A DNA stretch of 32,000 nt from Kiritimatiella glycovorans (GCF_001017655.1 NZ_CP010904.1:2220001-2252000); one strand, 5' to 3'; positions 645-25,933 are shown, numbered from the stretch's first letter. Notes: generated by a model from the sequence alone, not told the origin. Numbers and translations: made by a program.

Positions 645-1679
645 ATGAACGGCAGAGAACGAATGAACGCGGTGCTGAACCACGAACCGCCCGACCGGGT
701 CCCTTTCGTCCCGTCCATTTACGAACACGGTGCAAGGGTTATCGGCAGAAGTCCCTACGAGACCAGCCGATCGGCGGCGCTTACCGCTGAAGCGGCGCTG
801 AAATCATACGAGATCTACGGACACGACCTGGTGACCGTCGGCATCGATATCTACAACGTCGAGGCCGAGGCCTTCGGCTGCGAACTCTCCTTCGACCCGA
901 AAAAATATATTCCGGGCATAAAATCCCATCCGCTGGCGGGTTCGACCGCCCTGGATGCGGGCGGACTGGACATCCCTGCGCCGGGAGAGGGAAATCGCTT
1001 ACAGCTGATCGTGGACGCGACGCAACGGGTGGTCGACGAGGCAGGCGATGAGGTATGGGTTCTGGCGACGATGTCCGGCCCGTTCTCGCAGGCCGCGGAA
1101 TTGCGCGGATTCGAAAACCTCATCTGCGATATGGTGGACACCCCGGAGCGGGTGCATGAACTCATGAACCTGACGACCGAGCTGTCGCTTCAGCAGGCCC
1201 GGCGCATCTCGGAAGTCGGCGCGGGCGTGAGTATATTCGAATCGTGGGCCACCATCCCGCTGATCACCTCGGATATCTTCGCCGAGTACGTGGTGCCCTA
1301 CAACAAGAAGGTCATCGAGATGATCAAGCGGGATTATGAGGTGCCGCCGCCGGCAGTCATCATGGGCGGCGATACGGCCATGCTGATGGACCACTTTATC
1401 GACGTCGGCACCTCGCTGGTCGTCGCCGACTACATGACGGACCTGGAACTCATGAAGGAGAAAACCCGGGATCTCCAGATGATCGTGCGGGGCTGCGCCG
1501 ACCCCAAAATGATTGAGCGCGGGCAGTGGGAGGGGGTCCAAGAATCGATTGACGGACTGGCCCGGAAGAAAAGGGGCATGAATAATTTTGTGTGGGGCTG
1601 CGGTTGCGTATCCCTCGATACCGGCACGGACGCCCTGATGAGGTTTAAAAAGATGTGCGCCGAAGCGGGGGGCCATTGA
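645..1679 (+). CDS. uroporphyrinogen decarboxylase (URO-D) superfamily protein, MtaA/CmuA-methyltransferase-like; the context is not heme biosynthesis
   Basis: 344-aa ORF. The N-terminus ERMNAVLNHEPPDRVPFVPSIY is the typical URO-D-family opening. The C-terminal half (VIMGGDTAMLMDHFIDVGTSLVVADY...) fits the family's barrel pattern. It lies 69 nt upstream of a co-directional transporter gene. Confidence 0.6.
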   Translation: MNGRERMNAVLNHEPPDRVPFVPSIYEHGARVIGRSPYETSRSAALTAEAALKSYEIYGHDLVTVGIDIYNVEAEAFGCELSFDPKKYIPGIKSHPLAGSTALDAGGLDIPAPGEGNRLQLIVDATQRVVDEAGDEVWVLATMSGPFSQAAELRGFENLICDMVDTPERVHELMNLTTELSLQQARRISEVGAGVSIFESWATIPLITSDIFAEYVVPYNKKVIEMIKRDYEVPPPAVIMGGDTAMLMDHFIDVGTSLVVADYMTDLELMKEKTRDLQMIVRGCADPKMIERGQWEGVQESIDGLARKKRGMNNFVWGCGCVSLDTGTDALMRFKKMCAEAGGH

Positions 1680-1748
1680 CCGCACACAGCGGGGTTCCCG
1701 CTCGTACATCCCGGCGAAAAGAAACGCTGAACATCGGAGAGGATCATT

Positions 1749-3428
1749 ATGTGGCTGGGCCTTGATTATGCCATCTGGTGTGTAGTGCTGATCTACCTGC
1801 TGGCCATGCTGGCGCTCGGCTGGTGGAGTCGTGGCAGGGCCTCGAGCCAGGACGGCTATCTGATGGGGGAAAGAAAATTCAATACCCCGATGATGATCAT
1901 GCACTCTTTCGGAGCCGGCACGAATCCGGGCGATGCCGCCGGCGTCGTCAGCGGCAGCACCCAGGCGGGGGCCTCGGGCGTCTGGGTGTCGTGGCTGTGG
2001 ATGTACGGAACCCCTTTCTACTGGCTGATTGCGCCGATGGTGCGTCGGATGCGCTGCCTGACCATGGCCGACTACTTCGAGGAACGCTTCGGAGGGGCCG
2101 CCAGCGCCCTGTACATCCTGGTCTCCGCGTCGGCCATGGTGGTCTGTCTTGCCAGTGTCCTTCTGGCGACGACCAAGACCGTGCAGGGCATGATGGGCAG
2201 GGTGGGAACCCCGGATGCGGAACTGTGGTTTTACGGAATACTGATCGTTACGACGCTTACGTTCATGCTGTACAGCTACTGGGGCGGCATCGTAGCGGCC
2301 ATCCGAACCGATTTCATCCAGGGGCTGATGATGATCGTCCTCTCTTTCCTGGTGGTCCCGGTTGCGCTGAACCTGGAGACCGTCGGCGGCATAAAGGGAA
2401 TGCAGGCGACGCTGGCGGCCGCATCCCGGGAGCACGGGACAGATTTGCTCTCTATTTTCGGACCCGACCGTTTCAACCTGGGGGTCGTCCTGATGCTGTG
2501 CATGCAGGCGCCTTTGAGTGCGATGGCGCTGCCGCATCTGGCCACGGTATGCGGGGCCGGGAAGACGGAGTGGCAGGGACGCATGGGCTTCGCCGGCGGC
2601 AATATGCTGAAGCGTTTCTGTACCATCGGCTGGGCCCTCCTCGGCATGGCCTGGCTGGCGCATTTGATCTCGCAGGGCGTGGTGGTGGATGCCGCGGTCG
2701 CCGACGCCGCCTTCGGCGATGCCATCCGGGCCCTGCTGCCCCCGGTGCTCCAGGGCGTGATGCTCGCCTGCATCCTGGCTGCGGCCATGTCTTCCGGCAA
2801 TGCCTTCCAGGTCACGGTTGCCGGCCTCTTCAGCGAAAATCTGTACAAGCGCTATGTCAACCCCTCCGCCGGCGACCTTCAGAAACTGAGGGTGACTAAA
2901 ACGGTCGGGCTGATCTATGTCCTGCTCGCCGTACTGGTTGCCATTCTGATGCGCGATGTGGTCCAGACGATTATGACCTACTTCACCATCCTGGCCCTGG
3001 TCGGGATTTCGACCGCCATGGGCATGTTGTGGCGGCGCATGAATCAGACGGGGATGATGACCGCGACCCTGCTGGCCGTGGCGGTGTTCGCGGGCACGCG
3101 GCTGAACGTATTCCATTTGCCGTCGGGTCTGGCCATCGGCGCACCCATCGCGGCCGGCGTAATCGGCGGCATTGTCGGCTCATTGCTGAGTCGACCCCCG
3201 GACCGGGAGAAAGTGGACCGTTTTTTCACCAAAATCTACACCCCCGTCGGGCAGGAGGACAAACTGGGGCAGTCTCTCGACGAGGCGGTGCCGGCCGATC
3301 GGCGCTGGCTGACCGCCGGCGGACTGTTTGTGGTGAAGCCGTCCCGTCAGAGCTGGGTCGGCTTCCTGGCCTTCTTCGGATTATGCATGGCCAGTCTCTG
3401 GACCATGCTGGCCCTGCTGGGAGGATAA
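1749..3428 (+). CDS. sodium:solute symporter family (SSF/SLC5-like) permease
   Basis: 559-aa ORF with a GGAGAGGA RBS 5 nt upstream of the ATG. It is hydrophobic throughout with many predicted TM segments. The N-terminal region LGWWSRGRASSQDGYLMGERKFNTPMMIMHSFGAGTNPGDAAGV is typical of SSF permeases. Confidence 0.75.
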   Translation: MWLGLDYAIWCVVLIYLLAMLALGWWSRGRASSQDGYLMGERKFNTPMMIMHSFGAGTNPGDAAGVVSGSTQAGASGVWVSWLWMYGTPFYWLIAPMVRRMRCLTMADYFEERFGGAASALYILVSASAMVVCLASVLLATTKTVQGMMGRVGTPDAELWFYGILIVTTLTFMLYSYWGGIVAAIRTDFIQGLMMIVLSFLVVPVALNLETVGGIKGMQATLAAASREHGTDLLSIFGPDRFNLGVVLMLCMQAPLSAMALPHLATVCGAGKTEWQGRMGFAGGNMLKRFCTIGWALLGMAWLAHLISQGVVVDAAVADAAFGDAIRALLPPVLQGVMLACILAAAMSSGNAFQVTVAGLFSENLYKRYVNPSAGDLQKLRVTKTVGLIYVLLAVLVAILMRDVVQTIMTYFTILALVGISTAMGMLWRRMNQTGMMTATLLAVAVFAGTRLNVFHLPSGLAIGAPIAAGVIGGIVGSLLSRPPDREKVDRFFTKIYTPVGQEDKLGQSLDEAVPADRRWLTAGGLFVVKPSRQSWVGFLAFFGLCMASLWTMLALLGG

Positions 3429-3507: not shown

Positions 3508-4830
3508 ATGAACCCCAAGACCGCACCCCTGACACGACGCAAGTTCAGCCGGGCGTGTCTCGCCGCCGGGGCCGCCCCGCTGGTGCTGCCGGGACGGGTC
3601 CGCGCGCGGCCGTCCGCGAACGACCGGATAACCGTGGGCATGCTCGGGGTCGGGCGTCAGGCCTACCATGCCAATATGCCGGCTTTCCTGCATATGCCGG
3701 ACGTTCAGGTGGTGGCGGTCTGCGATGTGGACGACTGGCGGCTGCAGAACGCGCGTAAACGGGTCGAGACCCACTACGCCGAACAGCGGCCCTCCGGCGG
3801 ATACCGGGGATGTGCCGTCTACCGCGACTTCCGGGAGATGCTGGCGCGACCCGATATCGACGCCGTGATGATCTCCACGCAGGACCACTGGCACGTGCCG
3901 ATGTCGCTCGCCGCGATCGAGGCGGGCAAGGACGTCTCCCTCGAGAAACCCATTACCGTGAGCATCCGCGAGGGGCGCCTGCTGTGCGATGCCGTAGCGC
4001 GTTATTCGCGCGTGTTCCGGACCGACAGCGAGTTCCGCTCCCGCGACCGATTTCGCCGGGCCTGTGAACTGGTACTGAACGGACGCATCGGCACCCTGCG
4101 CCGTATCCGTACCGGCGCCCCCGCCTCGGACCGGGCCTGCCCCCCGCAGCCCGCGCAGCCGGTTCCGGAAGAACTGGACTACGACCTGTGGCTCGGTCCC
4201 GCGCCCCGCACCCCCTACACCGAGAAAAGGGTGCATCCGCGCAAGGGATACGGACGTCCGGGCTGGATGCGGGTTCGGGACTATTGCGACGGAATGATCA
4301 GCAACTGGGGCACGCATCTCAATGATATCGCCCAGTGGGGCAACGGCACGCAGACCACCGGCCCGGTCGAGATCGAAGGGACGGGCACGTACCCGGACGA
4401 CGGGCTCTGGGATGTCCTGACGGGATTTGAAGTCACCTACCGCTACGCCAACGGCGTGGAGATGCTCTACACCTACAGCCACCCGCACGTGCGTTTCGAG
4501 GGCACGGAGGGATGGGTGCAGGCGGACCTGGGCGGCCGCGGCCTGACCGCCAGTTCCCCCGCCATTCTGAACGCCCCCATCGGGGCGGGAGATATCCATC
4601 TCCCCGCCAAGACGGACAAGCGCGACTTCATCGACGCGGTCAAGACGCGCGGCGCGACGATGGAAACGGCCGAGATCGGGCACCGGACCACGACGGTCTG
4701 CCATCTCGGACATATCGCGATTCAGGTCGGCCGACGGCTTCGCTGGGACCCCGATGCGGAGGTCTTCCCCGACGACCCGGAGGCCAACCGCATGCTGGAT
4801 CGTCCCCGCCGCGCGCCATGGGTCATCTAA
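3508..4830 (+). CDS. Tat-exported Gfo/Idh/MocA-family oxidoreductase
   Basis: The track ORF is 3478-4830. I prefer ATG 3508 (GGAGA shortly upstream), which gives MNPKTAPLTRRKFSRACLAAGAAPLVLPG, a twin-arginine signal. It is followed by the Rossmann segment ITVGMLGVGRQAYHANM and family motifs DAVMISTQDHWH and SLEKPIT. Confidence 0.8.
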   Translation: MNPKTAPLTRRKFSRACLAAGAAPLVLPGRVRARPSANDRITVGMLGVGRQAYHANMPAFLHMPDVQVVAVCDVDDWRLQNARKRVETHYAEQRPSGGYRGCAVYRDFREMLARPDIDAVMISTQDHWHVPMSLAAIEAGKDVSLEKPITVSIREGRLLCDAVARYSRVFRTDSEFRSRDRFRRACELVLNGRIGTLRRIRTGAPASDRACPPQPAQPVPEELDYDLWLGPAPRTPYTEKRVHPRKGYGRPGWMRVRDYCDGMISNWGTHLNDIAQWGNGTQTTGPVEIEGTGTYPDDGLWDVLTGFEVTYRYANGVEMLYTYSHPHVRFEGTEGWVQADLGGRGLTASSPAILNAPIGAGDIHLPAKTDKRDFIDAVKTRGATMETAEIGHRTTTVCHLGHIAIQVGRRLRWDPDAEVFPDDPEANRMLDRPRRAPWVI

Positions 4831-4844
4831 TGAGAGGAGCCACC

Positions 4845-7800
4845 ATGAAAATGAAAAGAGGATCGCGGACGGTCACACTGGTGAAGTTTGTGCTGGTCGG
4901 CGCATGCCTGCTCGCAGCCGGACAGGCGGCCCGTGCCCTGACCGATGAGCTGTTCGCCTTCGACAACGGTCTGCAGGATATCAAGGGGCTGGAGGCCAAG
5001 GCACAGACGCTGAAGGAATTGGGCTATTCGGGCATAGGCTGGCGTCCCAACGGCGAGACCGCGGCTATGCTGAAGGTGCTGGACCGGCACGACCTGAAGA
5101 TGGTCAGCACCTATGTAAGTCTGCGCGTCGGGGCCGACCCCCTGCCCCTGAGTGACCGGATCAAAAACGAGCTGCGCGCTCTGGAAGGCCGGGACACGAT
5201 CGTGTGGCTGACGCTGCTCAGCGGAGAAGGCGGCACGGATGAGTCGGCCGTCGCCATGGTTCGGGAAGTGGCGAAGATCTCGGAGGAAGTGGGACTGGAG
5301 GTGGCGCTCTACCCGCACGCCGGCTGTCATGTGGAAACGGTCGAGGACGCGCTGCGGATGGCGGACGAGGTGGACCGCCCGAATGTCGGCGTCTCGTTCA
5401 ACCTCTGCCATTTCCTCAAAACCGGATCGGACCAGAACCTGAAGGCGGTCCTCCGGAAAGCGGCGCCGCAACTGCGGATCGTGTCCATCAACGGCGCGGA
5501 CCGCGGGGACACGCACGCGATGGGGTGGGCCCGGCTCATTCAACCGCTCGGAGAGGGAACGTTCCCGGTCGAGCGCCTGCTGGCCGCGCTGGACGAGGTC
5601 GGCTATGAGGGTCCCATCGGCCTGCAGTGCTTCAACGTGCCCGGGGAAGACCGCGAACATCTGCGCCGTTCGATAAGGTCCTGGCGCCGCCTGATCGCCC
5701 CCTGGAATCGGGACGCCCTGTTTTCCAGGGCCGCGGAATCGGAGTACGGCCAGAGCCGCGCCGCGCTGGCCCGGATCGTCGAACTGATCACGGACGCGCC
5801 CGCGGACCGGCAGCGGGAGTTTGAAACGCACAGCGTCGCGCTCCTGGAGGATCCCGACGCTTCGTGCCGCAGCAAACGAACGGTCTGTCACCTCCTGAGC
5901 CGGATCGGTACGGCGGAGTCTGTGCCGGCGCTGGCCGCCCTGCTCACCGATCCGCAGCTCTCCCATGACGCCCGCTACGCCCTGCAGGCGCTGGCCTGTC
6001 CCGAGGCCGATCGCGCTCTGACGACGGCACTGGATCGCGTCCCGGCGCCCCTCACGACCGGGGTGGCGGCGTCGCTGGGCACCCGCCGCGTCGAGGCCGC
6101 CGTTCCCGTCCTGGCGCAGCGGCTGAGCGACGACGGGGGCGATCCGGCGCTGCGCCATGCGGTCCTGACCGCGCTCGGGCGAATCGCGTCGGACCGCGCC
6201 CTCGCCGTCCTGCGCGAGGAGTTCGCGCGGACGCCGTCCGGGCCGGTCGGCCACGCCCTGATTCTATGCGCGGACACGCTGACCGCGGACGATCGGCGGG
6301 AGATGGCCGCGGAGCTGTGTCTCCATCTCTGGCGGGAGGCGCCCTCGCCCCTCTGCCGGGCCGCGGCTCTGCGCTCGCTGGCGCACTGCGCCCCCGACCC
6401 GGCGGCGGAACGGGTTGCCGAAGCGCTGCGGGACCCCGCAAGGCCCGTACGGGAGGCGGGCGTGGCCCTCGTCTCCGGGCTGCCGGTGAAAGCCACCCTG
6501 CACGCGGCCACGGAAGCCCTGCCTTCCGTACCGGACCGGCTTAAGGTCCGGCTGCTCACGGCCCTGCGCGAGCGCGGCGACCCCGCTGCCCGGCCGGCCG
6601 TGCTGGCCATACTGGATCACAACCACGACGACGTGAGGCTGGCCGCCCTGCGGACGATGGAAACGATCGGGGCGCCCGAAGATACCGGCCGGCTCCTCGA
6701 GATAGCCCTGTCCGGCGACGGCGACGTGAGCAAGGCGGCCGGACGCGCGCTGGCGCGTCTGCCCGGACGCGACGTGAGCCGTCGGCTGGCCGAGGCCTTC
6801 CGTCGCGCGGATGTAGAGCGGCAGCCCGGGATCTGCAGCCTCCTGGCCGCGCGGAACGATCCCGCCGACCGGCCCCTGTTCCGCACATGGATCCGCCACC
6901 CCTCCCCGGAGGTGGCCCGGTACGCGGGACAGGCGCTGGGACGTCTGGGCGAGGCGTCGGATCTGGACCTCCTGTTCGGCATGCCGGGCAGCCCGGACTT
7001 TCCCGGAACGTCGCGTCCGGCCGTGGAAGCCGCCGTGATGTCCATCGCAGAGCGCCTGCCGGCGGATGAGGCCGCGCAACGCGTACGGGACGGCCTCGAC
7101 AAAAGCGGACCGGAGGAGCGGGCGATGCGCCTCAGGATCCTGGCCGAAATCGGGGGCGAGGCATCCCTGGAGGCCGTCGTGCAGGCGAGCCGCAACGAGG
7201 ACGATCGGGTGCGGGACGCGGCCGTGCGCGCGCTGTGTGCCTGGAAACGACCGGAGGCCCTGAACCCGCTGCTGAAGATCGCGGCGGACACGGACAGCCT
7301 GACGCATCATGTACTCGCCCTGCGCGCCTGCCACCGGCTGCTGCAGAACAACCCCGAACCGGCCGGGGAACGGCGGAGCGAAGTGGTGGAGGCCGCGGCG
7401 GCGATCGCGCGCCGGGAGCAGGAAAAGAAACTGTTCACCTCCCTCGTCGTCGAAATCCACGACCTGCAGGTCCGCTCCCCGCGCACGTGGCGCGTGCATC
7501 CCGCCGGACTGGTTCCAGGGGCGGTGTGGACGAGTGACCGTGATTACACCTTTGTGAAAGTGCCCGACGGCGTATGGGGACACACGTATCTCGAGGGGGT
7601 CATGCAGGACCGCGCCATCGGCGGGGACGAACCGTTTATACGCTTCCGCATTGAGACCCCGGCCACCGTGTACGTCGCCTACGATCACCGCTGCACCGAT
7701 CTTCCGGACTGGCTGGCCGACTGGGAAAACACCGGCGAACGCCTGACCTCCACCAGTACGCCCTCGGACCTGATTCTCTACCGTAAAAGGTTCCCGGCCG

Positions 7801-7880
7801 GACCCGTAGCCCTCGGTTCCCCGGCCGCGCCGGGAACGCATGCCGTCTACGTGGTCGCCGTGGTCCGGCAGGAGATCTGA
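4845..7880 (+). CDS. secreted multidomain protein: xylose-isomerase-like TIM barrel (sugar phosphate isomerase/epimerase, AP_endonuc_2 type) + ~550-aa HEAT-repeat solenoid + C-terminal beta-rich domain of unknown function
   Basis: The track ORF 4512-7880 overlaps the previous gene. ATG 4845 has a GAGAGGAG RBS and gives the Sec signal MKMKRGSRTVTLVKFVLVGACLLAAGQAARA. TIM-barrel motifs: EVALYPHAGCHVETVEDALRMADEVDRPNVGVSFNLCHFLKTG and PLGEGTFPVERLLAALDEVGYEGPIGLQCF. About nt 5720-7400 encode Ala/Leu/Arg-rich ~30-aa repeats (e.g. VPALAALLTDPQLSHDARYALQAL, DDVRLAALRTMETIG, DDRVRDAAVRALCAW) typical of HEAT/PBS-lyase repeats. The C-terminal ~140 aa (WTSDRDYTFVKVPDG...TVYVAYDHRCTDLPDWL) look like a carbohydrate-binding-type beta sandwich. 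Confidence 0.7.
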   Translation: MKMKRGSRTVTLVKFVLVGACLLAAGQAARALTDELFAFDNGLQDIKGLEAKAQTLKELGYSGIGWRPNGETAAMLKVLDRHDLKMVSTYVSLRVGADPLPLSDRIKNELRALEGRDTIVWLTLLSGEGGTDESAVAMVREVAKISEEVGLEVALYPHAGCHVETVEDALRMADEVDRPNVGVSFNLCHFLKTGSDQNLKAVLRKAAPQLRIVSINGADRGDTHAMGWARLIQPLGEGTFPVERLLAALDEVGYEGPIGLQCFNVPGEDREHLRRSIRSWRRLIAPWNRDALFSRAAESEYGQSRAALARIVELITDAPADRQREFETHSVALLEDPDASCRSKRTVCHLLSRIGTAESVPALAALLTDPQLSHDARYALQALACPEADRALTTALDRVPAPLTTGVAASLGTRRVEAAVPVLAQRLSDDGGDPALRHAVLTALGRIASDRALAVLREEFARTPSGPVGHALILCADTLTADDRREMAAELCLHLWREAPSPLCRAAALRSLAHCAPDPAAERVAEALRDPARPVREAGVALVSGLPVKATLHAATEALPSVPDRLKVRLLTALRERGDPAARPAVLAILDHNHDDVRLAALRTMETIGAPEDTGRLLEIALSGDGDVSKAAGRALARLPGRDVSRRLAEAFRRADVERQPGICSLLAARNDPADRPLFRTWIRHPSPEVARYAGQALGRLGEASDLDLLFGMPGSPDFPGTSRPAVEAAVMSIAERLPADEAAQRVRDGLDKSGPEERAMRLRILAEIGGEASLEAVVQASRNEDDRVRDAAVRALCAWKRPEALNPLLKIAADTDSLTHHVLALRACHRLLQNNPEPAGERRSEVVEAAAAIARREQEKKLFTSLVVEIHDLQVRSPRTWRVHPAGLVPGAVWTSDRDYTFVKVPDGVWGHTYLEGVMQDRAIGGDEPFIRFRIETPATVYVAYDHRCTDLPDWLADWENTGERLTSTSTPSDLILYRKRFPAGPVALGSPAAPGTHAVYVVAVVRQEI

Positions 7881-7910
7881 GCAGGACACAACGAAAAGGT
7901 GAGAACATAC

Positions 7911-9359
7911 ATGAAAAGACCACATTTACTCCGTTCGCTTATTACGGGAATGGCCTTCCAGATCGCACTCATCCCCTCTCTGCTGAGGGGTGCCGATCGG
8001 CCCAATGTGCTCGTTATCATCAGTGACGATCAGGGATGGGCGGACATCGGCTACAACAATCCGAAGGTCTACACACCGAATCTCGATACCCTGGCCCGGA
8101 CAGGGGTAACCTTTATCAACCATTACGTCATGCCGCAGTGCACCCCTACCCGTGTGGCCTTACTGACGGGACGATATCCCGGACGCTTCGGCACTCAGGC
8201 TCTGCAGGCCCACAACGGCCCCGCGTTTCCCATTGGCACCCCTACGATCGCGAGCATGTTTAAGCAATCCGGCTATGCCACCTTCTTATGCGGAAAATGG
8301 CACCTTGGTTGTTCCCCGAAGCATGGACCCAATTTCCACGGGTTTGACCACAGCTACGGATCGCTCGCCGGCGCCATAGGGATGTATGACCACCGCTATC
8401 GCGAGGGACCGCTCAGTGACACCTGGCATCGCGACCATCAGCTCATAGAAGGACACGAGAACGGGGTTCATGCGACAGATCTGGTTACCCGGGAGGCGGT
8501 AGACATTATTGAGAAGAAACGTGATAAGCCTTTCTTCCTGTATCTTGCCTTCCATGCCGTTCATACCCCGCTGGATGAACGGGGACCGTTTGTCGATCAG
8601 CCCACGAAACCGGACCCGAATAATCCCAACCGCTGGATCAACGAAGACAGGATCAAGTGGTTCAACGATCCCGAGGGCAGGATACAAAGCGAACCGGATC
8701 CCGAGAAACGCCTCCTGCTGGCAGCCGCTTATCACCTCGACCATGCGATTGGCGAAATCGTCGATGCTCTTGAGCGCAGCGGAAAAAGAGAAAACACTCT
8801 GATACTCTTTTCGTCCGACAACGGCCCCCAGGTCAACTGGGGAGGGAACGCCTATCCGGACGATCTTAAGCTGACCGATTTTAACCAGCCCCTTCCCATG
8901 AAAGGCAAGAAGCTCGACGTCTGGGAAGGCGGCATCCATGTGCCCGCCTTTGCCAACTGGCCGGGCAGGATATCTCCCGGAGAGCTTACGGACTACGTAC
9001 ACATCATCGACTGGTTTCCTACATTGGCCTCGATCATGGATTATCAACCGGAAGAGTCCATACCGTGGGACGGCATCGATATTTCAGAGGCTATATTTGC
9101 CGACGAACCCCTTGAAAGCCGGGATCTCTACTGGATCTGGAACCGACGGATCAATCGATGGGCTTTGCGCTATGGTGACTGGAAGATCGTGAAATACGGA
9201 CGGGATGAACCCACCCATGCCGGCGCATGGCAGCTCTTCAACCTCAAGAACGATCCGAAAGAAAAGAACAACGTGGCCGCCACCCACCCTGAAGTCGTGG
9301 AAACCCTGCACAAGCGCTTTCTGGTGCAGCGAAGCAAGGATCTGCAGAAGCATAAATGA
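7911..9359 (+). CDS. Cys-type sulfatase (arylsulfatase family S1), Sec signal
   Basis: The track ORF starts at GTG 7899; ATG 7911 is preferred. Motifs: RPNVLVIISDDQGWADIGYNN and MPQCTPTRVALLTGRYPGRFG (the C-x-P-x-R formylglycine motif), with GKWHLG further downstream. GC is noticeably lower than in the neighbours. Confidence 0.9.
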   Translation: MKRPHLLRSLITGMAFQIALIPSLLRGADRPNVLVIISDDQGWADIGYNNPKVYTPNLDTLARTGVTFINHYVMPQCTPTRVALLTGRYPGRFGTQALQAHNGPAFPIGTPTIASMFKQSGYATFLCGKWHLGCSPKHGPNFHGFDHSYGSLAGAIGMYDHRYREGPLSDTWHRDHQLIEGHENGVHATDLVTREAVDIIEKKRDKPFFLYLAFHAVHTPLDERGPFVDQPTKPDPNNPNRWINEDRIKWFNDPEGRIQSEPDPEKRLLLAAAYHLDHAIGEIVDALERSGKRENTLILFSSDNGPQVNWGGNAYPDDLKLTDFNQPLPMKGKKLDVWEGGIHVPAFANWPGRISPGELTDYVHIIDWFPTLASIMDYQPEESIPWDGIDISEAIFADEPLESRDLYWIWNRRINRWALRYGDWKIVKYGRDEPTHAGAWQLFNLKNDPKEKNNVAATHPEVVETLHKRFLVQRSKDLQKHK

Positions 9360-9806: not shown

Positions 9807-11717
9807 CTACGCCTTCACCCATACGGGGGTGGACCAGGCGCGTTCGCCGTTGTCCTGTTCGACGCGCACGTAATAGAAGTGTTCGCCGGGGCCGGGATCG
9901 TCGTCGAACTCGAACTCGACGACGCCGTTCTCACTGCGTTCGCGCCTGATCTCCTCGTTGTCGCGGAGGAACACGACATCCATACCGCCGTCGCGGCCGG
10001 CCACCTCACCCGCGAGTCGGCATCTCCCGCCCGATTCCGTCTCCTGCCCCATCGGGGTGCCGTTGACGCTGAAATCGAGGTAGATCCGGTCGAACGTGGT
10101 GGCGTAGACGCTGCGGTTCCACAGCGCGTCCCAGATCGATTCCCGGTCGAGCCGCGGCGCGACGAAGGCGGTCATGCCGTTCTTGGTCACCATCCATTCG
10201 CAGCGTCCCGGACGCGAGACGTGGGTGTCCGAGCAGGCGATCACGCCCGTGCGGATGCCCTGCGCGAGCCCCGCCTGGAGCGTTTTATCCGGATCGAGGT
10301 TGGGAAGACTGCGCGGATTGCCCGCGTACTCGGCGGTTCCGTGGCACGAATAGACCTCGGCGAACCGGCAGGAGCGCGGATCCCATTCGCCCCAGGGATA
10401 GGTCTTCTCGCCGCGGTCGTAGGCGAAATGATGCGGCCCGGCGGCCATCACGGGCCCGCCGCGATTATACTGCTCCCACGCGAGTTTCAGGCATCCCCCG
10501 TATTTCGGCGTGTAGTACTCCGAGTGGGGCGCCTCCACGGTCCGGTGATAGAAGTTGATGTGGTCGAAGTGCGTCCCGGCCTCCTCGGCGAGCAGCGTCA
10601 CGTAACGGCCCGGCTCATAGAAATCACGCACGATCTGCTGCGTCCCCGGCCAGTCGTAGTGCCAGTGATCCGACAGCGCGCAGACGTCGAGATTGGCCTC
10701 GTCGCGCCCGAAGCGGTAGTATTCCTCCATCGTGCCGCAGCCGTCGGAGACGCGCGTATGACCGTGGATGTCCCCGAACCAGATCCGGTTCGCGGGCGGG
10801 TCGTTGAAGACGCGGATCGGCTCGCCGCGTCCCTCGAGTCCGCCGCCGCGCAGCCGCAGGCGGTGCGGACCCTCGTCGCGCAGCTCGATCCGGATGCGCG
10901 CCATCCCGCGCCGCAGCCGCACGCCGCGCCTGAGGACCGATCCGTCCTCGTCGCGCACCTCCACCTCTTTTTCGAAATCGACGGCGGTGTTGTAGAAGGC
11001 GTCCTCGGCGCGCACGAGCAGTTCGAACGGCTCGCCGCGGACCTGCACCATCGGGGCCGTAGCGATCAGGTGATCCGCCGCGGCGGGCTCGATATCCCGC
11101 GCCGGATACTCGCCGATTCCCTCGAACACGCCGTCGGCGTCCGAGTCGGTGGCGACAAAGAACTCGTGGTTCGGGTCGGCGGTACTGGGCACGCGCGCCT
11201 TATGGCGATTCGCGCCGAAGATCACGCGCACCTTTTCGCCCTCGCGCAGGGCGCGGCCGCTGATTTTTGTCTGGATGCACTGGTGATAGATCAGCGGCGT
11301 GGAGCCCGACCAGTCCATCGCCGGCGGTCCGCCGGGGGCGCGGTGCATCGATTCGTTCGGCGCCCATCCGTACCAGTGGTTTTCAAGCTTCACGCCGTCC
11401 GGCCCCTCGACGCCGATATAATTCGGGGCGTCGGGGTTATCGACCTGAAATTTCGAGATATGACCGGTGCGGGTGTTCCAGAGCGCGGCGTGGTGGACGC
11501 CGACCCAGATCCCGCCGCCGACCGGGATGCCGCCCGCGCCGACGGCGACCTCGACGACCACGCGGGTTTTCGTCCCGGCCACGAGCCGGTCCGGCTCGAG
11601 GATGCGCGCCGATCCCGCGCCGCTCCCGTCGTAGGCGCGGGTGACAAAGGGCGTCAGGCCGGTCGCACCGGCGGCGACGCCGAGCTGAGCGATAAATCCT
11701 CTGCGGTTCTGTTTCAT
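9807..11717 (-). CDS. Tat-exported PHP-domain (CehA/McbA-like) metallohydrolase with N-terminal beta-sandwich region
   Basis: The track ORF is 9807-11837. The internal ATG at 11717 has a GGGAGA RBS and yields MKQNRRGFIAQLGVAAGATG, a twin-arginine signal. PHP-type metal motifs: WFGDIHGHTRVSDGCG, CALSDHWHYD and IACSDTHVSRPG. Confidence 0.7.
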   Translation of the reverse strand: MKQNRRGFIAQLGVAAGATGLTPFVTRAYDGSGAGSARILEPDRLVAGTKTRVVVEVAVGAGGIPVGGGIWVGVHHAALWNTRTGHISKFQVDNPDAPNYIGVEGPDGVKLENHWYGWAPNESMHRAPGGPPAMDWSGSTPLIYHQCIQTKISGRALREGEKVRVIFGANRHKARVPSTADPNHEFFVATDSDADGVFEGIGEYPARDIEPAAADHLIATAPMVQVRGEPFELLVRAEDAFYNTAVDFEKEVEVRDEDGSVLRRGVRLRRGMARIRIELRDEGPHRLRLRGGGLEGRGEPIRVFNDPPANRIWFGDIHGHTRVSDGCGTMEEYYRFGRDEANLDVCALSDHWHYDWPGTQQIVRDFYEPGRYVTLLAEEAGTHFDHINFYHRTVEAPHSEYYTPKYGGCLKLAWEQYNRGGPVMAAGPHHFAYDRGEKTYPWGEWDPRSCRFAEVYSCHGTAEYAGNPRSLPNLDPDKTLQAGLAQGIRTGVIACSDTHVSRPGRCEWMVTKNGMTAFVAPRLDRESIWDALWNRSVYATTFDRIYLDFSVNGTPMGQETESGGRCRLAGEVAGRDGGMDVVFLRDNEEIRRERSENGVVEFEFDDDPGPGEHFYYVRVEQDNGERAWSTPVWVKA

Positions 11718-11747
11718 GACGGTTCTCCCTGTCAGTTTCTTCAGACG

Positions 11748-11775
11748 GGGCGGTTCGGCTGCATACCCGAACCGC
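11748..11775 (-). other. intercistronic perfect 10-bp hairpin between the sulfatase and the PHP-hydrolase genes
   Basis: GGCGGTTCGG-CTGCATAC-CCGAACCGCC. There is no U-tract on the transcribed strand, so it is more likely an mRNA processing or stability element than a terminator. Confidence 0.4.
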
Positions 11776-11783
11776 CGCAATAA

Positions 11784-11845
11784 CGGCGCGCTCAGCCTGT
11801 CCGCCGAAGGCATCAAGGCCGAAGGCGGAGAGAGCACGCCCTACC
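11784..11845 (-). repeat. gene-end repeat family, copy C (interrupted); overlaps the sulfatase stop codon
   Basis: The minus strand reads GGTAGGGCGTGCTCTCTCCG...(34 nt)...GAGCGCGCCG. The TAG inside GGTAGGG is the stop codon of CDS 11841-13262. Confidence 0.6.
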
Positions 11846-14583: not shown

Positions 14584-14766
14584 GGCCGGCCATGCTGCCC
14601 GACTATGGCGCGATTGTACATACTTTTTTGGCAGAATTTACATCTAGGAATTAACCTCAGAGCAGATCACACTGACCGACGTCTTAATGGGAAATCGATT
14701 GCTCGCGCTTTCAGCGCATGAGCAATGGACGGGGGAGAGGTAAACCAAGCAAAGGGAGAAAGAACG

Positions 14767-15690
14767 ATGAAGATACTGAGAATCATGTTTGTGTTTGTAT
14801 TGACGCTTGCGCTCGGCGCCACGGCGTGGGCCACGGATTACACCTGGGACGGTACCGGCGACGGTACGACCTTTGATGACGCGGGAAACTGGTCTCCGGC
14901 GGGGTCCGCATTCACCACGAATGATCATTATACAGTAGACGACGGATCGGCCGTCAGCGTCACCGGAACACTGGATATCCAGTCCTTCTTTTTGGCTGGA
15001 AACGACGGAAGCATGACCATCGAGGAGGGAGCGTCGGTCTCCATCAACAAGAGCGCAGAAACTCATATTGATTCGAGCTCTACGCTGACGATTGACGGGA
15101 CGCTCTCGACGGGCGCCTATCGTTACGACCTTCGGGGGAACGGCGGTACGCTCAACATTATCGTCAATGGAACCCTGGACAGCGAACCCGCCAACAACCT
15201 GATGAGCACGGGATGCAATATGCTCATCGATGTCCATGGATCCATGGACTTTGGGGTAGGTCCAATGGGCCGCGTAGCCGGGGGCGGTCAGCGGGATCAC
15301 ACCATCAGCATTTTCACCAACGGCGTAGTGACCATGCAGAGGGACCTCCAACTCCAGGCCACGAATGGTCATACCGCCTCGGTCCGTCTGATCGGGGGGG
15401 ATCTGGATATGGGTACGCTGAGTTACCTCTATGGCGACCTTAACCTCTCGGACGAGGATAACGGGATCATCTTTCAGTCCGCCGAATCCTCCGTGTTCAT
15501 GGACGGGGACCAGACGAACACCGTTCAGGGCTGGATCGACGACGGCGCGCTCTCGTCGACGGTCGGGGACCTCCAGGTCCGATACGATGCGGGCAGCGAC
15601 CTCACGACCGTCATCCCCGAACCGGCGACGATCGGTCTGCTCGGCGCGGCGATGGGCGGCCTGATGCTGCTCCGTCGGCGCATTCGATAG
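14767..15690 (+). CDS. PEP-CTERM-anchored secreted protein carrying an uncharacterised ~295-aa module
   Basis: The track ORF starts at 14725. ATG 14767 has a GGGAGA RBS and gives the signal MKILRIMFVFVLTLALGATAWA. The C-terminus VIPEPATIGLLGAAMGGLMLLRRRIR is PEP + TM helix + Arg cluster, i.e. an exosortase sorting signal. The body starts YTWDGTGDGTTFDDAGNWSPAG. Confidence 0.85.
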   Translation: MKILRIMFVFVLTLALGATAWATDYTWDGTGDGTTFDDAGNWSPAGSAFTTNDHYTVDDGSAVSVTGTLDIQSFFLAGNDGSMTIEEGASVSINKSAETHIDSSSTLTIDGTLSTGAYRYDLRGNGGTLNIIVNGTLDSEPANNLMSTGCNMLIDVHGSMDFGVGPMGRVAGGGQRDHTISIFTNGVVTMQRDLQLQATNGHTASVRLIGGDLDMGTLSYLYGDLNLSDEDNGIIFQSAESSVFMDGDQTNTVQGWIDDGALSSTVGDLQVRYDAGSDLTTVIPEPATIGLLGAAMGGLMLLRRRIR

Positions 15691-15789
15691 CCCGGCGACG
15701 CAGCGGAGCGTTCCATTCATACCCGGCATGGAAACATGCCGGGGTCTTTGTACACGGATAAGTACATTATCGCGGCAGGGAGAGGTCTC

Positions 15790-18759
15790 ATGAAATCATT
15801 CAGCGCGCGGCTGGTTTGCATGCTGCTGCTTTCCGTGGCGGTCATACCGGCGGGGGCGGCGCCGTACAGCTGGGACGGCGGAGGCGACGGCACAAGCTTC
15901 GGCGATGCGGGGAACTGGAATCCGGCGGGGTCGTCGTTCACCACGGGAGACGATTACGCGATCGGCGACGGATCGTCCGTGAACGTCACCGGGACGGTGG
16001 AGGTCGGGTCCATCCGGCTGTACGGAAGCGAAGGGAGCCTGACCATTGAAGAAGGCGCGGCGCTCTCCATCGCCGACTCGACCAGCGGGACGATCTCCCA
16101 GATCGATGCGTCTTCGACGGTGACGATCGACGGGACGCTCTCGACCGGTTCGCAGCGTTACGATATCCGCGGACAGTCGGGTACGGTCAAGATCGCCGTC
16201 AACGGAACCTGGGACGCAGCCCCCGCCAACAACGGGATTACCGACGACGCCAACGTGCTCTTCGAGGTCAACGGCTCCATGGATTTCGGGATCCGCCACA
16301 GCTTCGGCCGCGTAGCCGGGGGCGGTCAGCGGGATCATCGCATCAGCATCTACCCCGGCGGCACCGTCACGATGCAGCAACCCCTTTCGCTGCAGGCCGC
16401 CCACGGTCATACCGCCTCCATCCGCCTGACGGGAGGGACGCTCGATATGGGCGGCGAGACCTACGAATACGAGAAGCTGGATCTCTCGGACGAGGATAAC
16501 GGGATCATCTTCCGGGATGCCGACTCGACCCTCCGGTTGAGCGGCGATCGGAGGGATCGCGTTCAGGCCTGGATCGACGACGGCGCCCTCCGCTCGGAGG
16601 TGGGCTCGCTTACGAGCCGATACGATCCCGCCGGGAACACGACGACCGTACTGCCCTCCGCGGCGGCCCCTGCGGCCCCTGCTGAGCCGGCGGAGCAGCC
16701 CGCCCGTCCAACGCAAGCCGCCGCGAAGGGGCGTGTCCGCATCCATGCCGACACGCCGTGGATCGTTCCTGACGCCTATCGCCGGCAGGTCACCGTCGGC
16801 AACGAGCCCGTCATGCGGGCGCTGGAAGACGTGAAGCGCGACTGGTACAAGGTGTTCGGTCACCGCCCCGTCGTACGGCCCCGGGCGCCGCAGAACTGGG
16901 ACGGTCCGATGATCGTCTTCGGCGTAACCCCGGACGGAGACCTCCCCCGGGGGCCCGAGAGTTTCGCCCTGCGCGTGCAAAGAGATTCCGGCGGGCCGCG
17001 CATCCTCGTCAACGGAAACGACACCCGCGGACTCATCTTTGCCGCCTATGCCCTCTCGGAAGAAATCCTCGGTGTGAACCCGTGGTATTTCTGGACCGGT
17101 CACGAACCCGAGGCGCGGCGGCATATCGACGTCCCGGCCACGCTGAACGAGACGTTCGGCCCTCCGACCTTCCGTTACCGCGGATTCTTCATCAACGACG
17201 AGGATCTGCTCGGCCGTTACTCGCCCGATCCGCTGCGCGAGACCGTCTATTCGCTCGACATGCTCGACCGCATCTGCGAGACGATTCTGCGCCTGCGGGG
17301 CAACATGATCGTGCCGGGCACCTTCAACTTTCCCGACGAACGCTGCTGGGAATTCGCCTCCCGCCGAGGTCTGGCGCTGAACATGCACCATATTTCCGTG
17401 GTGGGACTGCTCACCTGGCGCTGGCCTGAGGATGTGCCCTATTCCTACCGCAAGCATCCGGAGATTATGGAGCGCTACTGGCGCCAGTGTATCTCCGCCT
17501 TCGAGGGCTTTGAAACGGTCTGGACCGTCGGATACCGCGGCAAACATGATCGTCCTTTCTGGGAATATGAGACGGAGGTCAAAACCGCAGAGGAACGGGG
17601 AGCCGTCATCACGGAGGCCATGGCCCGCCAGGTGGAACTCATCCGCGAGGTGGACCCGGACGGCATGATCATAGCCAACCTCTGGGAGGAAGGCAGTCAG
17701 CTCATGCACGAGGGGCACGTGACACTGCCGGAGGGCGTGGTGCGGGTCTGGGCCGACAACGGCGGCGGGGTCATCGACGACGACGGTGCCGCCCGGGCCG
17801 GAGACGGCATCTACTATCACACCGCCATGATGGGGAGTATGCGCAACCAGCTGACCGAGCTGGTTACCCCGAGCCGGATCTACCGGGAACTCGGCCGCTT
17901 CGCGCGGGCCGGGGGCACGAGTTACCTGCTGGTCAACGTCAGCGACGTTAAACCGGTCCCGCTCTCCACCGAATGCGCGATGCGCTTCGCGTGGAACGCC
18001 GATCCCTACCTGGACCGGACGGACGAGCAGAACGGGGACGCGTATCTGCTCGAGTGGAGCCGGCGCGAGTTCGGGGAGGAAGTGGCGGAGGAAATTGCGG
18101 AGGTCTATGAAGGCTACTTCAATATTCCTTACAAGCGCAAACCACCCCACCGCGGCGCCAACGCCAATCACACCGTTCTCAGGCGCCAGCTCGACGGCCC
18201 CGCCGCGCCTCTGCTGGCCGCGGGCGAACCCCTAACAAAAGAGATCCTCGCGAATGCGGAGGAACTGCGGGCCTTTGCCGCATCCAATATCGCCTACGTG
18301 AAAAAACTGGCGGCCGAAGCCGAGCCGATTCTCGATCGGTTGCCCGAGCCGCGGCGCGCATTTTATCAGGAGCATGTGCTCGCCCAGATCCAGTTCCATC
18401 TCCAGGGCCTCATCATGCTGGAACAATACTGCCTGGCGCTGGAGGCGTACGATCGGAACGACACCGCCCGCGCCGTCGCCTGCGCCGAACAGGCGCTCGC
18501 GGCGTGCGAGAGGATTATCGAATCCATGCATGAGGCCGAATCGGGCCGCTGGACGACCTGGTATTACGGCGACGGCAAGGTGAACGTCGAGGACAGCCGC
18601 GACCGGATACGGGTATTGCTGGCCCGGCTGAATGGCGAGCCTCCGCCTCCGACGCGGCCGCGCAGACAGCATATCTTCGACTACCAGGAGCAGGAGAGGT
18701 TCGAGGGCAACTTCCCCTACCTGTACCCGCACTGCGACGGGAAACGCGTGATCGAGTAG
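15790..18759 (+). CDS. GH115-like glycoside hydrolase (alpha-(4-O-methyl)-glucuronidase family) with an N-terminal paralogue of the preceding PEP-CTERM module
   Basis: The track ORF starts at 15736. ATG 15790 has a GGGAGAGG RBS and gives a signal peptide. Residues ~24-300 align with CDS 14767-15690. A Pro/Ala linker (AAAPAAPAEPAEQPARP) follows. GH115-type motifs then appear: ILVNGNDTRGLIFAAYALSEEILGVNPWYFW, FRYRGFFINDEDLLG and ICETILRLRGNMIVPGTF. Confidence 0.75.
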   Translation: MKSFSARLVCMLLLSVAVIPAGAAPYSWDGGGDGTSFGDAGNWNPAGSSFTTGDDYAIGDGSSVNVTGTVEVGSIRLYGSEGSLTIEEGAALSIADSTSGTISQIDASSTVTIDGTLSTGSQRYDIRGQSGTVKIAVNGTWDAAPANNGITDDANVLFEVNGSMDFGIRHSFGRVAGGGQRDHRISIYPGGTVTMQQPLSLQAAHGHTASIRLTGGTLDMGGETYEYEKLDLSDEDNGIIFRDADSTLRLSGDRRDRVQAWIDDGALRSEVGSLTSRYDPAGNTTTVLPSAAAPAAPAEPAEQPARPTQAAAKGRVRIHADTPWIVPDAYRRQVTVGNEPVMRALEDVKRDWYKVFGHRPVVRPRAPQNWDGPMIVFGVTPDGDLPRGPESFALRVQRDSGGPRILVNGNDTRGLIFAAYALSEEILGVNPWYFWTGHEPEARRHIDVPATLNETFGPPTFRYRGFFINDEDLLGRYSPDPLRETVYSLDMLDRICETILRLRGNMIVPGTFNFPDERCWEFASRRGLALNMHHISVVGLLTWRWPEDVPYSYRKHPEIMERYWRQCISAFEGFETVWTVGYRGKHDRPFWEYETEVKTAEERGAVITEAMARQVELIREVDPDGMIIANLWEEGSQLMHEGHVTLPEGVVRVWADNGGGVIDDDGAARAGDGIYYHTAMMGSMRNQLTELVTPSRIYRELGRFARAGGTSYLLVNVSDVKPVPLSTECAMRFAWNADPYLDRTDEQNGDAYLLEWSRREFGEEVAEEIAEVYEGYFNIPYKRKPPHRGANANHTVLRRQLDGPAAPLLAAGEPLTKEILANAEELRAFAASNIAYVKKLAAEAEPILDRLPEPRRAFYQEHVLAQIQFHLQGLIMLEQYCLALEAYDRNDTARAVACAEQALAACERIIESMHEAESGRWTTWYYGDGKVNVEDSRDRIRVLLARLNGEPPPPTRPRRQHIFDYQEQERFEGNFPYLYPHCDGKRVIE

Positions 18760-25917: not shown

Positions 25918-25933
25918 CACAGAGGAGCACTCC

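Follow-up and report, generated by a model that had tools for sequence, protein, structure and literature searches.

The locus described here raises the question of what becomes of a sugar oxidised in the periplasm when the dehydrogenase is encoded beside a secreted barrel protein with an unfamiliar pocket. The locus lies in a stretch of 32,000 nucleotides (nt) of Kiritimatiella glycovorans DNA (NZ_CP010904.1:2220001-2252000), hereafter called the window, to which all window coordinates refer, and the studied feature occupies positions 3508-7880. It consists of two genes, one for a Gfo/Idh/MocA oxidoreductase (Gfo) with a signal for twin-arginine translocation (Tat), and the other for a protein of 1011 amino acids (aa) with a general secretory (Sec) signal, in which a xylose-isomerase-like TIM barrel (aa 33-300; its family is called TIM* here) is followed by a HEAT solenoid and a C-terminal beta-sandwich. 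The preferred reading, held with somewhat less than even confidence, is that the two proteins act together on a periplasmic keto-sugar intermediate in a variant of the 'oxidise, then process' pathway, because a dehydrogenase of the pathway type is accompanied by a barrel that stands, by gene linkage and by fusion, in the place of the lyase. That the pair is functionally connected with keto-sugar chemistry is in itself likely, in view of the identity of the dehydrogenase, the conserved gene pair and the DUF1080 fusions of the same barrel. The variant occurs chiefly in Planctomycetota, Verrucomicrobiota and phyla related to them. The original prediction had proposed an oxidative glycoside-cleavage pair; the kinship of the dehydrogenase, the linkage and the DUF1080 fusions agree with it, whereas metal-dependent elimination of the known type does not hold.

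The pathway in question was worked out by Nasseri et al. (bioRxiv 10.1101/2024.03.25.586180), who assigned the Tat-exported Gfo protein as a 3-dehydrogenase, the DUF1080 protein as an alpha-lyase/hydratase and the TIM barrel as a beta-lyase. The substrate is oxidised at C3 by the dehydrogenase with its tightly bound NAD, and elimination follows, carried out on beta-glycosides by the Co2+-dependent TIM barrel and on alpha-glycosides by the DUF1080 protein. After hydration the same dehydrogenase reduces 3-keto-glucose, so the cycle is redox-neutral, and related enzyme sets can process 6-sulfated and glucuronide substrates. In the barrels AL1 and BT1, Co2+ is held by His-Asp-His, together with a catalytic Glu and substrate-binding His and Trp residues (same preprint).

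The dehydrogenase of the window contains the Rossmann domain and the C2 domain (Pfam GFO_IDH_MocA, PF01408, 2.5e-17; GFO_IDH_MocA_C2, PF19051, 7.5e-29). Its N-terminus carries the twin-arginine motif T-R-R-K-F-S-R followed by a hydrophobic stretch, and the RR and F of this motif are invariant in an alignment of the window enzyme with four homologs encoded by neighbour genes. This Tat signal and the Sec signal of the 1011-aa protein were both judged by eye, and some close Gfo homologs bear a precomputed PF10518 TAT_signal. A profile built from these five homologs matched the solved structures 8TDF and 8TDH best (1e-45 and 6e-43), followed by the C-glycoside 3-oxidoreductase DgpA (3e-28), myo-inositol 2-dehydrogenase (6e-24) and the glucuronide 3-dehydrogenase 8TDI (4e-15). 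The enzyme therefore does not cluster with inositol dehydrogenases, in keeping with the glycoside role first proposed for it. We take 8TDF and 8TDH to be the AL3 of Nasseri et al. from the proximity of their accessions to 8TDI, as the PDB names say 'dehydrogenase' only. Among NCBIfam models the top match was BT_2158_fam, a glycoside 3-dehydrogenase model (1.1e-30). The window enzyme is therefore read, from these profile E-values and from a BT_2158_fam score far under the equivalog cutoff, as a relative and not an ortholog of the periplasmic glycoside 3-dehydrogenases. It keeps the lysine of the catalytic-loop EKP motif and the His of the D-x-x-x-H motif, both invariant among the five homologs. 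Identity to the closest homologs is 61-70%, and at least 7992 clusters at E<=1e-30, with generic annotation only, make up the family.

The association of the two genes extends far beyond this genome. TIM* was found at no fewer than 583 loci in species-representative genomes, mainly of Planctomycetota, with others in Verrucomicrobiota, Victivallales, Hydrogenedentota, Sumerlaeota and a few Bacteroidota; the best genomic match, at 49%, is from Victivallales. Linkage was assessed at the best 80 of these (at least 583) loci, counting as a Gfo homolog any match of E<1e-15 and at least 250 aa within 1.3 kb of the TIM* domain. Such a homolog, 28-62% identical to the window enzyme, was present at 36 of the 80 loci (36 of 67 when only loci with at least 1.8 kb of upstream DNA are considered), on the same strand in 35 of the 36 cases, and the linked loci cover Planctomycetota, Verrucomicrobiota, Victivallales, Hydrogenedentota, Sumerlaeota and Bacteroidota. 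The far flanks of TIM* loci gave three Gfo matches in 524 kb, that is, about 0.015 expected per equivalent span, and the gene pair is accordingly conserved. At about 15 of the 80 loci the Gfo gene is followed by a DUF1080-TIM* fusion. Metagenomic relatives adjoining a PF19051-type Gfo gene include P0005 (TIM*-DUF1080-HEAT-F5/8C, an architecture shared by P0003 and P0006), P0004 (HEAT-TIM*) and P0012 (HEAT-FG-GAP-TIM*), and in P0015, a TIM*-DUF6807 fusion (L005, 6001-7899), a PF19051 Gfo gene lies 1 kb away.

That the barrel of the 1011-aa protein belongs to the xylose-isomerase-like superfamily, as was first proposed, is upheld by the AP_endonuc_2 match at aa 56-282 (PF01261, 2.7e-21, 76.8 bits against a cutoff of 31.1) and by the fold of the AlphaFold2 (AF2) model, a confident (beta/alpha)8 barrel with a mean predicted local distance difference test (pLDDT) score of 94.7. 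The nearest solved folds found by Foldseek are IolI (E 2.6e-12, template-modelling (TM) score 0.72), D-tagatose/L-ribulose 3-epimerases and YcjR (TM about 0.69), within a range of TM 0.65-0.74, 13-20% identity and probability 1.00. None of the 50 hits listed, out of 173 significant ones, is described as a 3-keto-glycoside lyase. At the sequence level the family profile matched IolI best among PDB entries (1e-9) and then the ketose 3-epimerases (2e-6); neither the single sequence nor the profile gave a PDB match to AL1/BT1, DgpB/C, CarB/C or LgdB at E<=10. An NCBIfam scan of the barrel at E<=10 yielded sub-threshold IolE, psicose epimerase and QuiC models and no BT_2156-type model. TIM* comprises at least 1072 clusters (90% identity) at E<=1e-20; its typical member has about 290 aa and is annotated as 'sugar phosphate isomerase/epimerase', and an N-terminal hydrophobic run is present in 103 of 115 stand-alone members starting with M. 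In the 1011-aa protein itself a lipobox-like V-G-A-C at aa 18-21 offers an alternative reading of the N-terminus.

The pocket of the barrel is where TIM* departs from the enzymes of its fold. The metal of ketose 3-epimerases is bound by a Glu-Asp-His-Glu tetrad at four consecutive strand ends, with a spacing of 33/26/35 that is typical of the family. Counting along the aligned chain of 5ZFS gives the tetrad E146, D179, H205 and E240, which fits this spacing. In the profile alignment with the ketose 3-epimerase 5ZFS/8YEB, E146 falls on a deletion beside Tyr156 of the window protein, D179 on Asn186, H205 on Ser214, with Asn216 two residues further, and E240 on Gln261; H182 of 5ZFS corresponds to His189. 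The alignment with IolI has the same replacement of D by N and the IolI Glu in a gap, and ends before strand 8. In the model the pocket residues stand at the C-terminal ends of strands 5 (152-155), 6 (181-186), 7 (210-215) and 8 (258-261); the pocket geometry comes from these strand ends and the alignments. The resulting signature is Y156-P157-H158, N186-L-C188-H189, S214-I-N216-G-A-D219, W228, Q233 and Q261. Among 25 diverse fused members Y156-P-H158, F185-N186-x-C188-H189, G217, W228, I232 and Q261 are invariant, and among 120 stand-alone members Y156, H158, N186, C188, H189, Q233 and Q261 occur in all 120 and N216 and D219 in 119.

As this signature is invariant or nearly so across the members, the window copy included, TIM* is a strongly constrained and clearly delimited family, whose pocket has neither the classical metal ligands nor the classical carboxylate base. 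The window barrel agrees with 56 of the 62 columns of at least 90% conservation and keeps the whole signature, which rules out a decaying copy. Glu164 (in HVET) was considered as a first metal ligand on the basis of one pairwise alignment to 3TVA, and was rejected: the position is Ala in 46 and Glu in 67 of the 120 members, it lies beyond the strand end in the model, and the profile alignments put the canonical Glu in the gap beside Y156. As the Glu-Asp-His-Glu tetrad is replaced by other, invariant residues, TIM*, so far as alignments can tell, cannot work like the known metal-dependent 3-keto-glycoside lyases. The original prediction of an eliminase of known kind is not tenable, since the canonical residues are missing in both the alignments and the model and no sequence relationship to known lyases was detected in the PDB searches at E<=10; TIM* must then either work by another mechanism or have a role other than catalysis. 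A protein of 564 aa, P0002, consists of two tandem TIM* barrels, both with YPH, FNLCH and GLQ, the first having NGSN for NGAD.

The HEAT solenoid that follows the barrel (HEAT_2, 2.7e-34 in four stretches) is not made of generic repeats. Conserved blocks run through its 57 homologs, which can be aligned over 480 or more of the 580 residues, a family-specific pattern, and these homologs carry DUF1080, ThuA, F5/8C, FG-GAP, DUF6807 or nothing, instead of or besides TIM*. A Gfo gene is directly adjacent at all nine HEAT-family loci read (the window, L001/L002, L003, L004, L073, L089, L090, L091 and L008), and the solenoid itself is therefore a conserved neighbour of such dehydrogenases. This holds for a protein with HEAT only (L089), for ThuA-HEAT-F5/8C (L090) and for DUF6807-HEAT-C-terminal domain (L008, 358-3456), where the adjoining Gfo has a different C-terminal type. 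At L091 (3572-13455) two tandem Gfo + HEAT-DUF1080 pairs lie downstream of a sulfatase gene and of a mechanosensitive-channel gene in the opposite orientation, so that the dehydrogenase-solenoid unit duplicates as a unit. The L091 contig carries a protein that is named by NCBI from a Candidatus Brocadiia bacterium. ThuA is the partner of the Gfo-type ThuB in 3-keto-trehalose formation. The modules borne by HEAT are thus tied to 3-keto-sugar chemistry, DUF1080 by published work, ThuA by this partnership and TIM* by linkage. Literature searches on an association of HEAT, DUF1080 and MocA, on DUF6807 and on PF14100 gave nothing relevant.

Fusions of TIM and HEAT recur in about a dozen metagenomic proteins; the exact order TIM*-HEAT-C-terminal domain, a combination not recognised as described in the original prediction, was seen in the window only. 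No second protein of this order was found; a metagenome scan for the whole protein gave 164 pattern matches, none of them confirmed, and an exact-sequence look-up of the 1011-aa protein found it not on record. DUF6807 (PF14100, formerly 'PmoA') replaces TIM* at the head of equivalent HEAT-C-terminal-domain proteins (P0134, P0156, P0166 and L008). This replacement, together with the fusion of DUF6807 to TIM* in P0015 and the presence of both near Gfo genes, suggests that DUF6807 is part of the same keto-sugar toolbox. The PDB matches of a DUF6807 protein came from its HEAT part alone and gave no solved structure for DUF6807.

The C-terminal domain gave no Pfam match at E<=10 and does not belong to a described carbohydrate-binding-module or Pfam family. 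Homologous modules are abundant (2157 cluster representatives at E<=1e-3 and 655 at 1e-10), often as two to six tandem copies beside fn3/Ig-like domains, and the closest copies, 43-53% identical, end DUF6807-HEAT proteins of about 1030 aa, that is, the scaffold of the window protein with DUF6807 replacing TIM*. Its AF2 model is a confident all-beta sandwich (pLDDT 96), whose sole significant fold matches are part of the glycoside hydrolase (GH) 2 beta-glucuronidase chain 6HPD (TM 0.83, root-mean-square deviation 2.2 A) and the GH138 enzyme 6HZE (TM 0.62). As modelled, it resembles a GH2 accessory domain, and it is reasonable to regard it as a putative binding module.

Put together, these observations suggest the following course of events. 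The dehydrogenase, by its RR motif and homology, would be exported folded through Tat with a bound nicotinamide cofactor, as AL3/BT2158 are, and would oxidise a ring hydroxyl of the terminal sugar of a desulfated or sulfated oligosaccharide, with position 3 assumed by analogy. The keto-sugar would be taken over by TIM* in the Sec-exported 1011-aa protein, as gene linkage and the DUF1080 fusions indicate, for an elimination/hydration that breaks the glycosidic bond or for an enolisation-type rearrangement. Such a step would have to work without a classical metal site. It may, speculatively, be catalysed by the invariant His158, Cys188-His189, Asp219 and Tyr156 while Asn and Gln polarise the carbonyl, or else by a displaced His/Cys/Asp metal site. 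The solenoid may dock the dehydrogenase or hold the glycan, letting the keto product re-oxidise the bound cofactor in a redox-neutral cycle, and the beta-sandwich, from its fold, probably binds or targets the glycan. From their context the sulfatase, the symporter and the cytoplasmic URO-D-like enzyme would serve desulfation, uptake and downstream steps. A TIM barrel can, in chemical terms, support enolisation without a metal, as triosephosphate isomerase shows, and three options for TIM* remain: metal-free acid/base enolisation by His158, His189, Asp219 and Tyr156, a displaced metal site, or no catalysis. The wider version, in which TIM* would be a new catalytic solution within its fold, metal-independent or built on a His/Cys/Asp site, and the HEAT solenoid a docking platform that brings the Tat-exported dehydrogenase together with interchangeable TIM*, DUF1080, ThuA and DUF6807 modules in periplasmic 'oxidative glycosidase' complexes with which Planctomycetota, Verrucomicrobiota and their relatives would act on sulfated glycans, is rather doubtful.

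Several points weigh against joint action of the two proteins on a keto-sugar. TIM* is devoid of all four canonical metal ligands and of the catalytic strand-8 Glu, with Q261 invariant instead, and to our knowledge all characterised keto-sugar lyases, epimerases and isomerases of this fold are metal dependent. The replacements of D by N and of E by Q are the pattern expected of an inactivated, binding-only domain. The functions suggested for TIM*, the HEAT family and the C-terminal domain come from comparison for every member. On the side of the dehydrogenase, the BT_2158_fam score is 106.7 bits against an equivalog cutoff of 750 bits and the N-terminal half alone aligns; the D-x-x-x-H of AL3 (Asp248/His252) is N-x-x-x-H in the window enzyme, the Asp position reading N/G/D/G/D among the five homologs. 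About half of the TIM* loci have no Gfo neighbour, and the remote members P0031 and P0062 (a methyltransferase fusion) have no adjacent Gfo gene. Moreover, the closest Gfo homolog whose neighbourhood was read (66% identical) is flanked by URO-D-like and GH29 fucosidase genes and has neither TIM* nor HEAT nearby; TIM* is consequently not obligatory for this dehydrogenase clade, which can work with other partners.

The alternative that survives best, although unlikely, is that the 1011-aa protein is non-catalytic and that the 'dead-enzyme' pocket of TIM* binds a sugar or keto-sugar in the manner of lectin-like TIM barrels. With the HEAT and beta-sandwich parts it would capture the glycan or tether the dehydrogenase, and the follow-up steps would be spontaneous or fall to other enzymes, for example one with the weakly DUF1080-like head of the GH2-like protein described below. 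The pocket lends itself to this view: three of the four canonical positions have been replaced by uncharged residues (D to N186, H to S214/N216, E to Q261), and the retained H158 and H189 match, by spacing, the substrate-binding histidines of known enzymes. TIM* is also a promiscuous module, fused to HEAT, DUF1080, FG-GAP/VCBS, SGNH hydrolase, methyltransferase, GH95-like and DUF6807 domains, and is interchangeable with DUF6807 at the head of HEAT-C-terminal-domain proteins. Most members, however, are stand-alone secreted proteins of about 290 aa in two-gene units with a dehydrogenase, which is a more enzyme-like pattern, and Cys188, Asp219 and Tyr156 are conserved more strictly, over more than 1000 clusters and several phyla, than the residues of a generic sugar-binding site usually are. 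The precedent of triosephosphate isomerase also tells against the need for a dead enzyme.

It is quite unlikely that the pair interconverts stereoisomers without cleavage, as a periplasmic oxidise-rearrange-reduce system like YcjS/YcjR or IolG/IolI that would turn an unusual sugar of the sulfated glycan into a usable one. Such Gfo + TIM-barrel pairs are established, the nearest folds to TIM* are IolI, the ketose 3-epimerases and YcjR with no known lyase in the top 50, and the best PDB profile match is again IolI (1e-9). A TM of 0.7 with 13-20% identity does not, however, separate functions within this superfamily, and the YcjR/IolI-type enzymes all use the metal tetrad that is missing from TIM*; in addition, a cleavage pathway is favoured by the recurrent fusion to DUF1080, for which lyase/hydratase activity is proven, and by the AL3-like dehydrogenase of Tat type. 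Chance adjacency of unrelated secreted proteins in a crowded glycan-utilisation region may draw on the great number of Gfo/Idh/MocA genes in these phyla (at least 7992 related clusters) and on the closest Gfo homolog examined without a TIM*/HEAT neighbour, but it is extremely improbable given 36 linked loci of 80 against about 0.015 expected, 35 of the 36 on the same strand, and an adjacent Gfo at nine of nine HEAT-family loci.

The preferred reading, joint action on a keto-sugar, is set within a string of five credible co-directional genes on the + strand, coding for the URO-D-like protein, the symporter, the Gfo/Idh/MocA enzyme, the 1011-aa protein and a sulfatase and separated by 69, 79, 14 and 30 nt (Table 1). 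Open reading frame (ORF) calls and Pfam leave the layout first given, with its coordinates, 14-nt gap, domain order and operon with a transporter and a sulfatase, correct in every respect.

Table 1. Features of the gene string and of the 1011-aa protein, in window coordinates
Feature	Position	Strand	Basis or remark
URO-D/MtaA-like gene, 344 aa, without signal peptide, first of the string	645..1679	+	Pfam URO-D 1.6e-48
Sodium:solute symporter, 559 aa	1749..3428	+	Pfam SSF 2.1e-25; TIGR00813 4e-26
Gfo/Idh/MocA oxidoreductase, 440 aa, PF19051 (C2) type	3508..4830	+	ATG 3508, stop 4828-4830; Pfam, NCBIfam, homologs
Ribosome-binding site GAGGAG, within the 14-nt spacer	4833..4838	+	Read from the sequence
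Gene for the 1011-aa protein (signal peptide, TIM barrel, HEAT solenoid, beta-sandwich)	4845..7880	+	ATG at 4845
Signal peptide, aa 1-31, predicted cut after A-R-A	4845..4937	+	n-region KMKRGSR, hydrophobic core; by eye
TIM* domain, aa 33-300, xylose-isomerase-like TIM barrel with non-canonical pocket	4941..5744	+	Pfam AP_endonuc_2; AF2
HEAT solenoid, aa 301-865 (about 565 aa), opens Y-G-Q-S-R, block C349...VP.L..LL...ARYAL	5745..7439	+	Pfam HEAT_2
C-terminal beta-sandwich, aa 866-1011 (146 aa)	7440..7877	+	AF2; no Pfam match
Sulfatase, 482 aa from ATG 7911 (ORF opens GTG 7899), 30 nt downstream of the 1011-aa gene	7911..9359	+	Pfam Sulfatase 3.9e-55

Elsewhere the window encodes three more sulfatases (four in total), GH115, GH2-like, F5/8-type-C and DUF3604-like proteins, a regulator of the AraC type and at least one protein bearing a PEP-CTERM sorting signal, and it contains a second URO-D-like gene; with such genes the window is a utilisation region for a sulfated glycan. 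Its guanine + cytosine (G + C) content of 58-70% gives rise to numerous long spurious ORFs on both strands, and long antisense ORFs (e.g. 999-3116 and 6264-7925, minus strand) were set aside as artefacts of 60-70% G + C. A promoter and terminator scan stayed at background level and was uninformative.

The top NCBIfam matches of the URO-D-like protein at the head of the string are methylcobamide:coenzyme M methyltransferase-like, all under their cutoffs, and for its role there are guesses only, such as sugar O-demethylation or decarboxylation. The second URO-D/MtaA-like gene of the window (PF01208) lies at 24784-25917. Such cytoplasmic PF01208 proteins recur near the Gfo clade, at L003 (2851-4047) upstream of Gfo + HEAT-TIM*, at L008 (5108-6154) downstream of DUF6807-HEAT-C-terminal domain + Gfo, and at L092 (2469-3467) and L093 (1782-2780) in URO-D - Gfo - GH29 fucosidase units whose Gfo is 66% identical to the window enzyme; none was found among the 80 genomic TIM* loci.

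The GH2-like protein (1357 aa, 20630-24703) had been said to begin with a DUF1080-like domain, and this is weakly borne out: its N-terminus (20630-21319) covers nearly the full DUF1080 profile (PF06439, positions 24-186 of 187) with a score, however, under the cutoff (E 0.0032, 18 bits against 26.8). If real, it would be the sole candidate for a DUF1080-type lyase/hydratase in the window. A secreted domain of about 295 aa (Y-x-W-D-G-x-G-D-G-T-x-F-x-D-A-G-N-W...) occurs twice, at 14725-15690 and 15736-16650, with 57% identity; one copy is stand-alone, has no Pfam match and ends, by eye, in a PEP-CTERM-like arrangement of PEP motif, hydrophobic stretch and RRR, and the other is the N-terminal extension of the GH115 enzyme. 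Between two sulfatase genes, a 676-aa protein (9807-11837, - strand) has the twin-arginine-like N-terminus NRRGFIAQLG and a GDIHGHTRVSDG motif, and its sole Pfam match is a short DUF3604 stretch (2.8e-6). As listed, the F5/8-type-C ORF of 1059 aa (25862-29041) shares 56 nt with the end of the second URO-D-like gene. The gene probably starts further downstream, at the Met of 'MKWNTKTVMAALIAAV', with which a signal-like stretch opens. For the first roughly 900 aa Pfam gave nothing significant, and the top match was the GH67 N-terminus (E 0.013).

Pairs of a Gfo enzyme and a TIM barrel for the oxidative processing of glycosides are, as a general concept, already known. What appears undescribed is TIM* as a family, with its non-canonical yet invariant pocket, the HEAT solenoid as a dedicated neighbour of PF19051 dehydrogenases, the swapping of TIM*, DUF6807, DUF1080 and ThuA on this scaffold and the C-terminal beta-sandwich module without a Pfam match. 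Glycan breakdown by oxidation, elimination and hydration has been defined only recently, and in gut Bacteroidota alone, and the present locus bears on environmental degraders of sulfated algal or host glycans. A family tightly linked to AL3-like dehydrogenases here carries a pocket unable to work like those of the characterised members of its fold, and the C-terminal beta-sandwich and DUF6807 are unannotated modules exchanged on one scaffold. A catalytic TIM* would define a new mechanism of catalysis and also serve as a new marker of oxidative glycan breakdown; a non-catalytic one would be a conserved pseudoenzyme partner of a periplasmic dehydrogenase. With either outcome the TIM* family offers concrete, clonable targets, and the finding, drawn from comparative sequence analysis, may be regarded as a strong testable lead.

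Among known systems the closest are the oxidative glycoside-cleavage clusters AL1-AL3 of Alistipes and BT2156-BT2158 of Bacteroides thetaiotaomicron (Nasseri et al.; Liou et al. 2020). They too have a Tat-exported Gfo dehydrogenase adjoining a secreted xylose-isomerase-like TIM barrel in the periplasm; their dehydrogenase, with 8TDF/8TDH taken as AL3, is the best solved relative of the window Gfo, and their DUF1080 is joined to TIM* in relatives of the window protein. Where AL1/BT1 have their metal ligands and catalytic Glu, the strand ends of TIM* bear Tyr/His, Asn, Ser/Asn and Gln. By spacing alone, and not by alignment, Y156/H158, N186/H189, S214 and Q261 may correspond to H182/H184, D214/W217, H240 and E275 of BT1, in which case TIM* would keep residues of the substrate-contact type and lose the ligands and the base. 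Furthermore, the gut clusters do not have the 565-aa HEAT solenoid and the beta-sandwich of the window protein, whereas the window operon has no clear DUF1080 gene and its Gfo scores far under the BT_2158 equivalog cutoff.

YcjS/YcjR of Escherichia coli, a glucoside 3-dehydrogenase with a 3-keto-D-glucoside 4-epimerase, and IolG/IolI of Bacillus subtilis, an inositol dehydrogenase with an inosose isomerase, likewise combine a Gfo-family dehydrogenase with a small xylose-isomerase-like barrel acting on the keto product. They differ from the window pair in being cytoplasmic, in having the canonical metal ligands and in having no Tat or Sec signals, HEAT or beta-sandwich. In the C-glycoside deglycosidases DgpA + DgpB/C and CarA + CarB/C and the levoglucosan enzymes LgdA + LgdB1/B2, oxidation by an oxidoreductase (Gfo-type in DgpA and LgdA) is followed by elimination in a xylose-isomerase-like barrel, and DgpA ranks second, as a class, among the solved relatives of the window Gfo. 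The lyases DgpB/C, CarB/C and LgdB are Mn2+-dependent. These systems are cytoplasmic, unlike the window pair, and no sequence similarity of TIM* to their lyases was detected. The levoglucosan pathway, with LgdA and the Mn2+-dependent lyase LgdB1/B2, has been described (PMC7676230).

The HEAT-repeat proteins of the Planctomycetes-Verrucomicrobia-Chlamydiae group, which are fused to DUF1080, ThuA or F5/8 type C domains, have the same solenoid of about 570 aa, alignable end to end and encoded next to PF19051 Gfo genes. They differ from the window protein in that other modules replace TIM* and none has the order TIM*-HEAT-C-terminal domain, and they are annotated as 'HEAT repeat domain-containing protein' only. 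The nearest match to the rear half of the window protein is provided by the DUF6807-HEAT-C-terminal-domain proteins of about 1030 aa.

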